A stretch of 4,017 nucleotides of DNA from the IMG/VR virus record IMGVR_UViG_2778261154_000011. One strand, written 5' to 3'. The first letter of the stretch is position 1. Each line of letters opens with the position of its first letter. A model generated the notes under the pieces. It made no database searches. It worked only from the letters and a program-made list of their open reading frames with translations, and was not told the DNA's origin. The stretch is from a virus. Its lineage: Duplodnaviria > Heunggongvirae > Uroviricota > Caudoviricetes. The translations under genes and the position numbers were made by a program. Below, piece after piece: positions 1 to 4,017 of the stretch.

Positions 1-1
1 G

Positions 2-196
2 GTGCTCGTCAAAGGAAAATGCCCTGTGCCATCCTCAGCCGAAACCTCCAGCGCCTCCGGCATGGGCAATGATGCCAGCGTCGAACTCTCTCCAGTTGCT
101 GGACGAAACGTTCTCGGTATCAGAGACGGAATCATCAGAGACCAGACAGCACTGAGAACGCTTCAGGAATACATCAGAACGCAGTGTCTGAATTAA
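2..196 (+). CDS. Rz: Rz-like i-spanin (lysis protein), C-terminal portion; 5' end lies upstream of the window
   Basis: Frame is open from the window edge to TAA at 194-196. The C-terminal residues ...KCPVPSSAETSSASGMGNDAS...ALRTLQEYIRTQCLN parallel the C-terminus of phage lambda Rz as I recall it (...CQSVREATTASGVDNAAS...LEGTQKYINEQCR). A proline-rich Rz1-like frame is nested inside it, as in lambda. Confidence 0.75.
   Translation: MLVKGKCPVPSSAETSSASGMGNDASVELSPVAGRNVLGIRDGIIRDQTALRTLQEYIRTQCLN
3..155 (+). CDS. Rz1: Rz1-like o-spanin (outer-membrane lipoprotein) embedded in a different frame of Rz; 5' end (signal peptide) upstream of the window
   Basis: Frame 3 translation is CSSKENALCHPQPKPPAPPAWAMMPASNSLQLLDETFSVSETESSETRQH with stop TGA at 153-155. 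The Cys-x-SK...Cys and proline-rich PPAPPAW core match the mature lambda Rz1 pattern as recalled (C-TSKQSVSQ-C-VKPPPPPAWIMQPP). The first Cys is probably the lipobox cysteine. Confidence 0.6.
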   Translation, partial: CSSKENALCHPQPKPPAPPAWAMMPASNSLQLLDETFSVSETESSETRQH

Positions 197-336
197 CGGA
201 GCTGGAATGAATGCTGTTTACCTGTTGCGGAAATAAAGATTGCATATTGCGACAATTTGTTGCATGTTTAAGGTGCGCTTTTCCAGAGCGTATGCGTACG
301 CACCGCATGAAGTACAACCACAGAGAGGCAACCATA

Positions 337-567
337 ATGGCAACAAGCATCCGTTTAGACGATGATTTCGTCAGTGACGTAAAGGTTCACGCTGATGCCG
401 CAAGTCGCAGCATACCAAAACAAATTGAGCACTGGGCTAAGATTGGTCGTATAGCTGAAGATAATCCAGATCTGCCATTCAGTTTTATTAGCGAAGTTCT
501 GCTGTCACAAAGCGAAATCAGACACAACAAGGTAACGCGTTATGTCAGAAGAACAGACAGGTCGTGA
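337..567 (+). CDS. Putative type II antitoxin, ribbon-helix-helix (CopG/ParD/RelB-like) fold, 76 aa
   Basis: ATG at 337 is preceded by GAGAGG (323-328) at good spacing. The N-terminus MATSIRLDDDFVSDVKVHADAASRSIPKQIEHWAKIGRIAEDN has the beta-strand plus two-helix layout typical of RHH DNA-binding antitoxins, followed by a C-terminal tail (PDLPFSFISEVLLSQSEIR...) of the kind that usually binds the toxin. It overlaps the downstream gene by 26 nt. The ORF-track start at 211 looks like an upstream extension without a ribosome-binding site. Confidence 0.6.
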   Translation: MATSIRLDDDFVSDVKVHADAASRSIPKQIEHWAKIGRIAEDNPDLPFSFISEVLLSQSEIRHNKVTRYVRRTDRS

Positions 568-871
568 AATTGATGTTTATCAGAGTCGGCGTTTCGAAAA
601 GTCTCTGAGTAAACTCCCGGAAGCGCAACTGAAAGTTGTGGAAGATGAGATCGACAGAATAATTGACAATCCTCTGTTGGGAACGCAAAAGAAAGGAGAC
701 CTCAGTTTTCTTCGTGTGCATAAATTTCAGCTGAATAATCAACAGGTGCTTCTGGGTTACAGCTGGCTTGACGATAAACTTGAGCTCTACCTCCTTAGCA
801 TCGGTCCACATGAAAATTTTTATACCGATCAGAAAAAACACCGAAAAGCTGATTTAAAACTCATCGGTTAG
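542..871 (+). CDS. Putative type II toxin of the RelE/ParE superfamily, 109 aa
   Basis: ATG at 542 has AAGG (529-532) upstream. Size, position directly downstream of and overlapping an RHH gene, and a C-terminal segment LELYLLSIGPHENFY resembling the RelE-family C-terminal beta-strand/active-site region (compare E. coli RelE ...VVFVISVGKRERSEVY, recalled) support the call. A terminator follows 21 nt downstream. Confidence 0.6.
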   Translation: MSEEQTGREIDVYQSRRFEKSLSKLPEAQLKVVEDEIDRIIDNPLLGTQKKGDLSFLRVHKFQLNNQQVLLGYSWLDDKLELYLLSIGPHENFYTDQKKHRKADLKLIG

Positions 872-891
872 TCCTGACGTCATGCATACCA

Positions 892-916
892 GCCCACGTA
901 AACGCGTGGGCTTTTT
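892..916 (+). terminator. Rho-independent terminator after the toxin gene
   Basis: GC-rich stem GCCCACG (892-898) pairs with CGTGGGC (905-911) around a 6-nt loop, immediately followed by TTTTT (912-916). Confidence 0.65.
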
Positions 917-1069
917 CATATCTGAATTTCACCGCGCACCGCAGCGCATGATAACCACCGAACCTGCCCCTTTGGAATGAGCCTTTGAGGATACCAGTTA
1001 GTGCTGGCGAGCCTCGGTGGGCTGGTTTCCTGTGCGGCAAAGGTTCATTTCAAAGAACAGGTATACGAC

Positions 1070-1567
1070 ATGAAATCATTAACCCTCTTCAATCAGCCAA
1101 TCCGTATCGGTGAAGATGGCATGATCTGCCTCACTGATATGTGGAAAGCCAGTGGTAAAAGTGAATCTGAATCTCCGTACCACTACCTGCGAAACAAGCA
1201 GACCAAAGAGTTCTTAGCCGAGCTGGAGAAAAACCACGAATCTGTGGTTTTTACTGAGCGCGGTGTACACGGTGGAACATATGGCGGGAAGTTTGTTGCT
1301 TATGATTATGCAGCATGGCTAAACCCCGGATTTAAATATGCAGCCTATAAAGTCCTGGATGACTACTTCACCGGAGAACTTCAGCATCGCAACAGCTTAA
1401 GTGCGCAGCTCAATATGAAGTGTCATGAGTTTGATCAGAAAAAAGATATGGCGAGCTTCTGTGGACAAGGGCTGGCGGCATGGCGCTATACGAAGCCAGT
1501 GTTGGTCGCTGAGATTAACTCCCTGGCTAACCAGCTGCAGATAACGATCCCCGGGCTTCCGGGATGA
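1070..1567 (+). CDS. KilA-N domain protein (phage DNA-binding/antirepressor-like N-terminal domain) with an uncharacterised C-terminal region, 165 aa
   Basis: The N-terminal half MKSLTLFNQPIRIGEDGMICLTDMWKASGKSESESPYHYLRNKQTKEFLAELEK...GGTYGGKFVAYDYAAWLNPGFKYAAYKVL fits the KilA-N (APSES-like) pattern as I recall it (conserved basic/Gly/aromatic positions, then G-T-W/Y...A...WL-P-F). ATG at 1070 places the domain at the N-terminus. The ORF-track GTG at 1001 would add 23 residues with no support. The stop TGA (1565-1567) overlaps the next ATG. Confidence 0.65.
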   Translation: MKSLTLFNQPIRIGEDGMICLTDMWKASGKSESESPYHYLRNKQTKEFLAELEKNHESVVFTERGVHGGTYGGKFVAYDYAAWLNPGFKYAAYKVLDDYFTGELQHRNSLSAQLNMKCHEFDQKKDMASFCGQGLAAWRYTKPVLVAEINSLANQLQITIPGLPG

Positions 1568-1821
1568 GTGATCGTGTCATTGAATGCGCCTCCAGAGCGG
1601 GGCGCGACTTCTCAGAGTTCATGAAAGGCGAGAAGGGCATGATGGAAGCATTGGCCTCGGTGGATGAGTTTGGCGAGCAGCTGCGCCTCAACGGCTGTGT
1701 CAATCATCACTTTGTTAGCTACATGATGCGGAACTCGATCATGCAGGCATTCATGGACATGGCAAAAGCCGAGAGGAAAGAAGAGCGCCGGCGTAAGCGA
1801 GCGGAAGCAAAAGCGAAGTAG
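1564..1821 (+). CDS. Small hypothetical protein (85 aa) with Lys/Arg/Glu-rich C-terminal tail; translationally coupled to the KilA-N gene
   Basis: ATGA overlap at 1564-1567 (start within the upstream stop). The C-terminus KAERKEERRRKRAEAKAK is strongly charged. No recognisable catalytic motif; Cys/His content is too sparse for an HNH fold. An alternative internal start at ATG 1642 is preceded by GAAGGG. Function unknown. Confidence 0.45.
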   Translation: MSDRVIECASRAGRDFSEFMKGEKGMMEALASVDEFGEQLRLNGCVNHHFVSYMMRNSIMQAFMDMAKAERKEERRRKRAEAKAK

Positions 1822-1860
1822 CCATTACAAAGCCCATCTACTGGTGGGCTTGATAATGGC
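1821..1860. repeat. Nested inverted repeat / stem-loop immediately after the small ORF stop
   Basis: Outer arms GCCATTA (1821-1827) and TAATGGC (1854-1860); inner arms AAGCCCA (1830-1836) and TGGGCTT (1845-1851); 8-nt loop. This gives a 14-bp interrupted stem. No strong T-tract follows, so it may be an RNA 3' stabiliser, a weak terminator or a protein-binding site. Confidence 0.4.
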
Positions 1861-1873
1861 TTATACCCTACAC

Positions 1874-1899
1874 GGGATAACTTAACTGATATCCCTTTT
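1874..1899 (+). terminator. Possible second hairpin followed by a T-run
   Basis: GGGATA (1874-1879) pairs with TATCCC (1890-1895) around a 10-nt loop, followed by TTTT (1896-1899). The stem is short and the loop large, so this is weak. Confidence 0.25.
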
Positions 1900-2209
1900 A
1901 ACGGATAAAGGTATTCAAGCCTGACACATCATGCGCTGTATCGTCGCTGTATTCCCGCATTAACCATGACCGTAGCCCGACGGGGAACTCCTTCTGCGCG
2001 AGTGTGCGGGAATAATCAAAAACGATGCACACCGGGTTTTTACCGCGTTTATGGTTCGCGGGTTTGTCCCTCATGCTCGCCAGTCCTGTGCGGGGGTGGA
2101 AGAAACAGGACACTTACACTGATTCTTGTGGGTACGATGCTATTCCTTTCTGGATTATCCCGATGTCATTCATGCAGGGCGCTGTATCAGACGTTCGTCA
2201 TGGCTGTCA

Positions 2210-2290
2210 GGCTGACGGGTCCTCCCGGTGGGGTGGCCTGCCACGGGGCGGGAGCGGCGCAGAATTTCACTATTTATGAAAATTTTTCGG
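2210..2290. other. cos site, cosN-proximal block (phage DNA packaging/cleavage site); predicted cosN about 2246-2257
   Basis: Window sequence GACGGGTCCTCCCGGTG...CCACG GGGCGGGAGCGG CGCAGAATTTCACTATTTATGAAAATTTTTCGG aligns with the lambda genome ends as I recall them (right end ...GACGGGTCCTTTCCGGTGATCCGACAGGTTACG joined to left end GGGCGGCGACCT CGCGGGTTTTCGCTATTTATGAAAATTTTCCGG). The block lies about 200 bp upstream of the Nu1-like start, as in lambda. The 12-mer at the cosN position shares only the first 6 nt with lambda. Confidence 0.6.
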
Positions 2291-2470: not shown

Positions 2471-2980
2471 GTGGCTACTCAGACTGAAGTTGCCAGGCAT
2501 TTGAGTCTGACCGATCGCCAGCTTCGCAGATTACAGAAACTGCCGGGTGCCCCGGTTTCGAACAAGCGAGGACAACTGGATCTGGATGCCTGGCGTGATT
2601 TTTACATATCGTATCTGAGAAGAAGTAAAAACGATGTGCCTGATGGTGATCCGGAAGAGGATTATGAAGAGAAACTACTCATTGCGAGATGGGAACTGAC
2701 CGCAGAACAGGCTGTCGCACAGCAGTTAAAAAATCAGGTGTCAAAAGGAAATCTTATTGATAGCGGATTTTGTATTTTTGCCCTTAGTAAGCTGGCGATG
2801 GCTTTATCCAGTACGCTTGACTCCATTCCTTTGTCCATGCAACGACAGTTCCCGGATTTAACGCCGCGTCATATTGATCATCTGAAAATCCTTATTGCTA
2901 AGGGAGCGAATCAGTGCGCGCGTGCGGGGGATAAATTACCGGATTTACTCGATGAATATATCAGAACAACAACTGAGTAA
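2471..2980 (+). CDS. nu1: Terminase small subunit, lambda Nu1-like, 169 aa
   Basis: GTG start at 2471 with GAGGTG (2461-2466) upstream and an in-frame TGA just before it. The C-terminal two-thirds are clearly similar to lambda Nu1 as recalled (window ...SGFCIFALSKLAMALSSTLDSIPLSMQRQFPDLTPRHIDHL...LPDLLDEYI versus lambda ...TAFCTFVLSRIAGEIASILDGLPLSVQRRFPELENRHVDFL...IPGLLSEYI). The N-terminal HTH region is diverged. It overlaps the large-subunit start by 29 nt, as in lambda. Confidence 0.9.
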   Translation: MATQTEVARHLSLTDRQLRRLQKLPGAPVSNKRGQLDLDAWRDFYISYLRRSKNDVPDGDPEEDYEEKLLIARWELTAEQAVAQQLKNQVSKGNLIDSGFCIFALSKLAMALSSTLDSIPLSMQRQFPDLTPRHIDHLKILIAKGANQCARAGDKLPDLLDEYIRTTTE

Positions 2981-3914
2981 TATGATGGTGGCAGTCACTA
3001 TCGCACTGCAGCCACTGGTCAGGGTATTGCCGGTGACGGCTGTAGAATGGGCCGATCAAAATTATTACCTGCCTAAAGAATCGTCATACGGTGAGGGGGA
3101 ATGGAAAACGCTGCCGTTTCAGGTCGCCATCATGAACTGCATGGGCAATGACGAGATTCGTACAGTTAACCTGATTAAATCTGCCCGTGTTGGTTATACA
3201 AAAATGGTGCTTGGTGTGATCGGGTATTTTATTGAGCACAAATCCCGCAACACTCTTCTTTTTCAGCCGACGGACTCAGCTGCTGAAGATTTTATGAAGT
3301 CTCACGTGGAAGCAACAATTCGTGATGTTCCTTGCCTGAAAAAACTTTCTCCCTGGCTGGGCCGGAAACACCGGGATAATACGCTCACACTGAAGCGTTT
3401 TTCCTCTGGTGTGGGGTTCTGGTGTTTGGGTGGTGCTGCTGCCAAAAACTACCGTGAAAAATCTGTCGATGTGGTCTGCTATGACGAACTCTCCTCGTTT
3501 GAACCGGATGTGGAAAAAGAAGGTTCGCCAACACTGCTTGGCGATAAACGTATTGAAGGTTCGGTATGGCCAAAATCCATACGCGGTTCAACGCCAAAAA
3601 TCAAAGGCTCCTGCCAGATTGAAAAAGCCGCGAATGAATCTGCACATTTCATGCGGTTTTATGTTCCTTGCCCTCATTGCGGGGAGGAGCAGTATCTGAA
3701 ATTTGGCGATGATGCGACGCCGTTTGGCCTGAAATGGGAGAAAGGCAAACCGGAAACGGTGTATTACCTGTGTGAACATAATGGTTGCGTGATCCGTCAG
3801 TCTGAACTTGATCAGACCGGGGGGCGCTGGATTTGTGACAATACCGGGATGTGGACGCGTGACGGCCTGACATTTTACAGCGTCGGTGATGAGGAGATAC
3901 CCCATAAGCGCTAA
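2952..3914 (+). pseudogene. A: Terminase large subunit (lambda gpA-like), N-terminal ATPase fragment of 320 aa; nuclease and portal-binding regions absent
   Basis: From ATG 2952 (MNISEQQLSNMM...) the product is near-collinear with lambda gpA as recalled (TAVEWADQNYYLPKES, KSARVGYTKM Walker-A-like, VVCYDEL Walker-B-like, GDKRIEGSVWPKSIRGSTPK, FMRFYVPCPHCGEEQYLKFGD, YYLCEHNGCVIRQSELD). Similarity ends at ...SVGDEEIPHKR followed by TAA at 3912-3914, whereas lambda gpA is about 640 aa. No downstream frame in the remaining 100 nt continues gpA. The ORF-track start at 2895 is an upstream extension. Confidence 0.8.
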
Positions 3915-4017
3915 CTTAAGGGTTGAACCATCTGAAGAATGCGACGCCTCGGTGCCTCGTTAAGACGATGCCTCGCGTTCTTCAATTGCGTTTTGTAGGC
4001 TGTCAGGGATACTGTCC

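Follow-up and report, generated by a model that had tools for sequence, protein, structure and literature searches.

The gene bor is the classic moron, or accessory gene, of phage lambda. It is among the few lambda genes expressed in lysogens (PMC7067206), and the DNA between the lysis gene Rz and the cohesive-end site cos has been reported to be nonessential in lambda (Hernandez et al., 1985, as cited in PMC5437064, reference 25). Lambdoid phages are the group for which the moron was defined (Juhala et al., 2000, as cited in PMC4104026 and PMC10884400), and a comparable one, the 'ant moron', comes in ten types in sixteen P22-like genomes (PMC2629481). We analyzed a 4,017-nucleotide stretch of DNA from a virus of the Caudoviricetes (IMG/VR record IMGVR_UViG_2778261154_000011; 'the window' below means this whole stretch), which represents the late-region junction of an E. 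coli lambda-like prophage, and we focused on the interval between its Rz gene and its cos site. We put the probability at roughly 0.85 that this interval is a dispensable accessory-gene slot at the point where the lysis cassette of lambdoid phages meets their packaging module. Such a slot is an ordinary phenomenon that has already been described, and the accessory hotspot supported here has long been known; the new detail is a conserved non-coding element of ~180 nucleotides (nt) in a part of the interval that had seemed empty.

The interval begins after the Rz stop at position 196, where the open reading frame (ORF) at 2–196 is identical to the C-terminal end of an annotated 468-nt coding sequence (CDS) for a 'lysis protein' in an identical intact prophage (L001), and it ends at cosN, where an alignment of window 2243–2290 to lambda 48500–45 over the cohesive-end site sets window position 2246 against lambda base 1. 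Both boundaries agree with those given in a preliminary description of the window made from its letters, which had also placed a toxin-antitoxin (TA) pair and a KilA-N pair in the interval, all on the late-transcript strand; Pfam and PHROG matches bear this out, with all four cargo genes on the plus strand. The corresponding interval of lambda contains bor (minus strand), lambdap78 (minus) and lambdap79 (plus), in agreement with the preliminary description, which gave lambda bor on the opposite strand and two small ORFs there. The absence of a bor homologue held up as well: the window had no match to PF06291 (Lambda_Bor), and tblastn searches with lambda Bor, p78 and p79 returned nothing meaningful from it. 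Searching NCBIfam gave no match for any window ORF. The slot and its anchors are laid out as follows.

2–196, plus strand: C-terminal part of Rz (i-spanin), PF03245 E = 1e-08; left anchor of the slot.
197–933, plus strand: TA cassette, an insertion relative to phage JLK-2012, delimited by a break in homology.
337–567, plus strand: ParD-like antitoxin gene, 76 amino acids; PF11903 E = 2.7e-19, 69.3 bits (cut-off 23).
542–871, plus strand: ParE-like toxin gene, 109 amino acids; PF15781 E = 3.3e-33 over positions 1–87 of 87, 113.9 bits (cut-off 28).
1070–1567, plus strand: gene for a KilA-N plus ORF11CD3 protein of 165 amino acids; PF04383 E = 1.3e-15, PF10549 E = 2.4e-13.
1564–1821, plus strand: partner gene of 85 amino acids; phrog_875 E = 3e-54; its start overlaps the KilA-N stop (ATGA).
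1933–2112, plus strand: non-coding element, conserved and with a fold like that of an RNA; homology to it has sharp edges in 20 of the 23 architectures.
about 2215–2257, plus strand: cosQ-like site and cosN (nick region 2246–2257), from alignment with the lambda cos junction.
2471–2980, plus strand: terminase small subunit (Nu1-like), PF07471 on the C-terminal half, phrog_57/1790; right anchor of the slot.

The comparison anchored on Rz and Nu1 that the preliminary description had proposed was run on 80 IMG/VR loci encoding a Nu1-like protein at least 93% identical to that of the window, to which five E. coli loci and the window were added. In 78 loci we could measure how far the Nu1 start lies from the Rz stop; this distance ranged from 447 to 3640 bp, and grouping at 90% reciprocal coverage yielded 23 architectures. 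The window's own architecture accounted for four of these 78 loci. Among 5426 complete E. coli genomes, the cos-Nu1 anchor was present in 1765, the KilA-N pair in 525 and the TA pair in 10, whereas only 6 genomes contained the entire arrangement, taken as at least 80% of the window; a scan of genome contigs with Nu1 produced four loci only. The same four genes thus did not recur at this position in most relatives, and the claim of a variable cargo slot was upheld. One architecture, represented by six loci, was essentially empty, its ~448 bp consisting of one conserved element plus cos, which is consistent with the slot being dispensable for lytic growth. In being present or absent among close relatives at one position, the cargo behaves as morons do.

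Several observations weigh against this reading. Retrieving loci through a conserved Nu1 inflates the apparent conservation of the right anchor, and because Rz was 45–100% identical across loci, the left anchor is positional rather than sequence-conserved. A third conserved anchor, the element at 1933–2112, lies inside the slot. A consensus scan found no sigma-70-like promoter upstream of the TA or KilA-N genes, so that independent expression in a lysogen is presumed here, and the TA proteins had no PADLOC match, with a weak partial match only (PDC-S22) for the KilA-N protein. Finally, many of the loci come from possibly decaying prophages, as illustrated by an IS3-family insertion sequence (IS) element within the KilA-N gene of L011 and by a Gp49 pseudogene in L005, and some of the variation accordingly stems from decay and not from exchange. 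In its strongest form this last point would make all differences between loci the product of decay of defective prophages, through deletions, IS insertions and pseudogenes, with no exchange of functional cargo, and the interruption of the window's own terminase gene by IS186 and the duplicated pieces in L048 and L013 fit such a history. Deletion cannot, however, produce unrelated intact genes at the same position in different loci, which is what we observed. Moreover, the sequenced phages lambda, HK629, JLK-2012, ES18 and VT2-Sakai vary here in the same way, and an identical uninterrupted prophage region with intact-looking head genes exists (L001). We consider it very unlikely that decay explains the differences.

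The catalogue of occupants agrees better with a slot for accessory genes of many kinds, the cargo being mostly regulators (PerC, Rha, KilA-N), lipoproteins (Bor, TonB_C) and proteins of the families DUF3950 and DUF1398, the latter being the family of lambdap78, YdfO and YbcV. Annotated occupants in E. coli genomes include DUF4406, a TonB-family lipoprotein, Rha together with ydfO and ynfO, and Gp49, to which Pfam and PADLOC scans of other loci added PerC, Bor (in one of the 78 loci) and a PD-Lambda-2_C-like protein; a 74-amino-acid ORF and Rha-ORF11CD3 genes occur as well. PerC is the commonest occupant, found in 14 loci (L022 and 13 others, architecture 8; PF06069, E = 4e-44) that have no copy of the 180-nt element, and its family is that of the prophage-encoded Pch regulators of the locus of enterocyte effacement (LEE) island. 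A DUF3950 (YlcI/YnfO) gene adjoins cos on the opposite strand in about half of the architectures and is missing from the window; examples of this semi-conserved cos neighbor are L025 776–1009 (minus strand) and K-12 ylcI and ynfO, and the encoded protein looks like a ribbon-helix-helix protein.

Conserved flanks and variable content would also be expected of a slot devoted specifically to anti-phage defence, like the hotspots of P2 and P4, with the TA and KilA-N pairs as the defence systems, and the preliminary description had spoken of an accessory or defence hotspot. TA systems can indeed serve as abortive-infection modules. In addition, one architecture (four loci) encodes a 355-amino-acid Beta_protein (PF14350; L056 interval 979–2046, minus strand) with a PADLOC match to PD-Lambda-2_C (E = 4e-32), and phi80-like phages have Tai defence genes on the upstream side of their packaging module (PMC11364771). 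The PADLOC match was nevertheless confined to this one of the 23 architectures, in a scan that did not take in every cargo ORF, and it concerned a single component. PD-Lambda-2 is a multi-gene system; the Beta_protein gene is flanked by two small ORFs and may belong to an incomplete or variant defence system. The absence of a PADLOC match for the window's TA proteins, the weakness of that for its KilA-N protein, and the nature of the commonest cargo (PerC, Rha, Bor, TonB_C, DUF3950 and DUF1398 proteins) likewise argue against a defence slot, and known defence systems were not enriched among the cargo scanned. We therefore regard a dedicated defence hotspot as improbable, and retain the accessory half of the earlier proposal while setting aside its defence half.

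In the accessory-slot reading, the turnover of gene content would probably come from recombination, homologous or illegitimate, between lambdoid prophages resident in the same cell, with breakpoints at a few recurrent edges, namely the Rz stop, both ends of the element, and cosQ/cosN. The element splits the slot into sub-slot 1, from Rz to the element, and sub-slot 2, from the element to cos. Sub-slot 1 of the window would then hold two stacked modules, a rare self-contained TA cassette with its own terminator and a widespread module comprising the KilA-N–ORF11CD3 gene and the 85-amino-acid gene, and sub-slot 2 would hold next to nothing. Given the late-strand orientation of the cargo, late transcripts antiterminated by Q should extend through it as far as cos and Nu1. 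In the lysogen the TA pair is presumably also transcribed from a promoter of its own, and there it would stabilize the prophage or abort competing infections. Three further features in sub-slot 1 accompany these modules.

891–920, plus strand: hairpin and T run resembling an intrinsic terminator and closing the TA cassette; 9-bp stem, 6 GC pairs, TTTTTC tail.
934–1069, plus strand: conserved leader upstream of the KilA-N gene, which also precedes Rha-type genes.
1820–1861, plus strand: hairpin with 17-nt arms after the 85-amino-acid gene (inverted repeat I2, 88% complementary).

The TA cassette is an insertion when compared with JLK-2012. Homology to this phage covers window 1–196 and 934–2111, with a 63-bp spacer between them in JLK-2012 versus 737 bp here. 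The antitoxin gene, which RefSeq names 'ParD-like family protein' in L001, comes first and is overlapped by 26 nt by the toxin gene, which also matches phrog_1213 (RelE-like toxin); as adjacent small genes in antitoxin-first order whose products both score above the Pfam cut-offs, the pair qualifies as a putative type II ParD/ParE-like system. The terminator-like hairpin after parE gives the cassette the terminator of its own that is expected of a moron. Searching for target-site duplications around the cassette revealed none, which leaves transposition unsupported and makes cassette exchange by recombination at shared edges the likeliest route. The same TA block adjoins a Rha gene and a 933W-type terminase in JNEC-KY171 (L098), and the same ParD/ParE-like cassette lies within the lysis cassette, beside a Panacea-domain gene, in E. 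coli A34 (L099, 2865–4572). Panacea domains are antitoxin-associated, and TA-type modules may cluster in lambdoid late regions.

The KilA-N module, by comparison, is widespread. Window 956–2110 is ~95% identical to DNA that follows Rz in many Shiga toxin (Stx) phages, in which the packaging genes are unrelated, and HK620 and Salmonella phages such as S107 have shorter parts of the module after Rz. The 85-amino-acid gene, which had no Pfam match, is translationally coupled to the KilA-N gene and accompanies it in L005, JLK-2012 and Stx phages. Upstream, window 903–1082 matches the region that precedes Rha genes in L018, L004 and L056, and within it a conserved leader of ~150 nt holds a small GC hairpin at 1010–1023; the KilA-N-ORF11CD3 and Rha-ORF11CD3 genes have this upstream region and the C-terminal ORF11CD3 domain in common and differ in their N-terminal DNA-binding domains.

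Downstream of the KilA-N module, about 400 bp had been described as carrying no convincing ORF. That much was correct, in that the 424 bp at 1822–2245 contain no ORF conserved in relatives, but the stretch is not featureless, since the ~180-nt element at 1933–2112 lies within it. The element marks where the lysis cassette ends on its 3′ side in lambda (from 46868 to about 47040, with bor and lambdap78 as its neighbors), HK629, ES18 (after rha), the K-12 prophage DLP12, Stx1 and Stx2 phages, and hundreds of prophages, with 438 phage records in all. In DLP12 it lies between borD and ybcV, where blastn recovered the first ~110 nt (NC_000913.3 579009–579116) and a covariance model extended the match to about 579181, and in VT2-Sakai it starts 10 nt after the Rz stop and is followed by a non-lambda terminase. 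At the expected position in Qin (L096 5461–5573, minus strand, which is the late strand there; between ydfO and gnsB), a weak covariance-model match (13.1 bits, E = 0.006) may represent a degenerate copy. We retrieved 181 loci by an invariant 30-mer of the element and found Rz upstream on the same strand in 168 of them. The distance from Rz was at most 20 nt in 53 loci and reached more than 2 kb in others, and four types of small terminase lay downstream, at distances of 115–3063 nt. These variable distances indicate that cargo inserts on either side of the element.

The element does not appear to encode a protein. When 34 variants were translated in six frames, stops occurred in every frame in many variants and no frame was conserved. 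Existing gene calls over 1898–2113, comprising a RefSeq protein and the PHROGs phrog_6954 ('Rz-like spanin') and phrog_17397, are probably spurious, their frames being broken. Two ORFs are concerned.

1898–2074, minus strand: RefSeq ORF of 58 amino acids (WP_001205133) on the element; frame broken in most variants.
2025–2279, plus strand: ORF that crosses cosN, phrog_17397 E = 2.6e-49; it looks like a member of a spurious gene family.

Instead, comparison of variants is suggestive of a structured RNA. The RNAalifold consensus energy was −38.3 kcal/mol for the plus strand versus −20.4 for the minus strand, and with 96 variants −30.2 versus −12.1. In the consensus, 99.1% of paired cells formed standard pairs, and one-sided changes were nearly all to G-U; six pairs had double (compensated) changes, and none of 500 shuffles attained the observed values, a test whose significance is overstated by the kinship of the sequences. 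Domain 1 (1936–2032) folded on its own with z = −2.98. The whole 180-nt element, by contrast, folded no better than its shuffles (z = −0.37), which counts against the RNA reading; only this first domain did better. Median conservation was 0.95 for the element versus 0.91 for the adjacent 3′ coding end of Rz, a comparison biased by the retrieval 30-mer; the 180 nt downstream scored 0.59, a value that we took, subject to the same bias, as typical of unrelated sequence.

The main rival to an RNA role is that the element matters as DNA, either as a recombination 'boundary sequence', which would persist through its part in module exchange, or as a region with a promoter for bor or other leftward genes. 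In nearly all architectures homology breaks off at its edges, a minus-strand promoter upstream of bor is annotated within it in the HK629 record, and the unexceptional fold of the whole element would be accounted for. A DNA function would not, however, explain why the consensus fold is so much stronger on the plus strand, nor why one-sided changes are almost all to G-U, given that the opposite strand would then have A-C mismatches. As for a bor promoter, Bor is missing from 77 of the 78 loci and the element is present in most, and the promoter-like hexamers of lambda are not conserved in other variants in an alignment read by eye. An exclusively DNA-level role is unlikely in our view. We regard the element as probably a structured part of the late transcript, and most likely a cis-acting one at the 3′ end of the lysis cassette; that it acts in RNA stability or processing would be a low-confidence guess. 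Separately, its sequence could supply homology for module exchange. The fuller proposal, that a structured RNA element of ~180 nt, widely conserved and so far undescribed, lies in the 'empty' part of the interval and serves as a fixed post for cargo on either side whatever packaging system follows, is tentative, and we place it a little below even odds.

The element also does not correspond to a known RNA that we could find. No Rfam 15 covariance model matched anywhere in the window at E values up to 1, and we found no description of the element in the searchable literature, including that on small RNAs (sRNAs) near borD and ybcV and searches with its invariant 15-mer. The sRNAs AsxR and AgvB were ruled out by their location between pR′ and the lysis genes (PMC4104026), the supplement of the same paper has no entry for the Sp5 genes that flank the element, and the Pas sRNAs were ruled out as they adjoin the holin/lysozyme operon (bioRxiv 10.64898/2026.05.13.724894). 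The loop of the 3′ hairpin (2085–2103) reads GCGATGGTGGAAG in most variants and GGGGGTGG in the window; within the former, GATGGTGG differs at one position from the octamer of Chi, GCTGGTGG.

The remaining features of the window belong to the flanks of the slot.

about 3–164 (end approximate), plus strand: Rz1-like (o-spanin) frame inside Rz, translation CSSKENALCHPQPKPPAPPAWAMMP..., PPAPPAW motif; stop taken from the sequence.
2296–2304 (inverted), 2354–2362 and 2384–2392 (direct), no strand assigned: cosB-like array of three ACCGGACAT sites, versus 0.04 expected by chance.
2952–3902, plus strand: N-terminal part of the terminase large subunit (gpA-like), truncated; PF05876 E = 5e-56.
3901–4017, minus strand: end of an IS186 element by which the terminase gene is interrupted; its 117 nt match the end of K-12 IS186B with 100% identity.

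On the left, the translation of the embedded frame resembles lambda Rz1. On the right, the site appears to be a lambda-type cos, with a lambda-homologous cosN, a cosQ-like ACGGGTCCT located 33 nt upstream of it (read by eye in the alignment), and the repeated ACCGGACAT sites between cosN and the Nu1-like gene, which resemble the R sites of lambda cosB. The Phage_Nu1 match of the small terminase is limited to the C-terminal half (profile positions 84–163), and an N-terminal DNA-binding part unlike that of lambda Nu1 fits the different cosB repeats. Because the gpA-like gene is cut by IS186, the source prophage was probably packaging-defective. The junction of IS186 with the terminase gene had no match across it among the 5426 complete E. 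coli genomes, the best matches stopping at 3903. E. coli RMDEC364 and a small number of other strains carry the region as an identical copy without interruption, in which the genes listed by RefSeq include holin, lysozyme, 'lysis protein', ParD-like protein, RelE/ParE toxin, KilA-N protein, a hypothetical protein, the small and large terminase subunits and portal; in L001 the large-terminase gene is intact as a 1929-nt CDS.

Together, these results provide a map of the slot, in which the Rz stop, the 180-nt element and cosQ/cosN recur as anchor edges and the element separates two sub-slots, and a catalogue of occupants, headed by PerC and including Rha and KilA-N regulators, Bor and TonB_C lipoproteins, DUF3950 and DUF1398 proteins, a ParDE-like TA pair and a PD-Lambda-2_C-like protein, which can be used for mining lambdoid prophages for accessory genes. 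The element is what could be of consequence here, since it would be a testable and apparently unannotated feature of the late transcript of lambda and Stx phages; were it functional, it would add to the lambda late transcript a new cis-acting element or processed RNA, one left without annotation through sixty years of lambda work.

Compared with known systems, the TA pair resembles the ParD/ParE type II systems of other prophages in its antitoxin-first, overlapping small genes and strong Pfam matches, and differs in having no sequence relative of solved structure (a Protein Data Bank (PDB) sequence search gave no match for the TA or KilA-N proteins). The slot resembles the hotspots of P2 and P4 (Rousset et al., 2022; PMC9122126) and the site of the Tai genes (PMC11364771) in its conserved flanks and variable inserts near cos or packaging genes; unlike the P2 and P4 hotspots, its cargo as seen here is not enriched in known defence systems. 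With the lambdoid morons, including the ant moron, it has in common extra genes found in only some relatives, one fixed place in the late operon and many types of content within a small set of genomes, whereas the ant moron is located before the tailspike gene rather than between lysis and packaging genes, and our consensus scan recognized no promoter for the window's cassettes. Two K-12 prophages have the same slot between Rz and a Nu1 homologue with other cargo, namely DLP12 (rzpD-borD-ybcV-ybcW-ylcI-nohD), which has the element, and Qin (rzpQ-cspI-ynfQ-ynfR-ynfN-gnsB-ydfO-ynfO-nohA), in which the match to it is weak, and neither carries TA or KilA-N genes. Lambda itself has the slot between Rz/Rz1 and cosQ/cosN and carries the same element, but it has no slot gene in common with the window: in lambda, bor and a gene of the DUF1398 family lie on the opposite strand and the element has cargo on both sides, whereas in the window the TA and KilA-N genes have the late-strand orientation and all of them precede the element.

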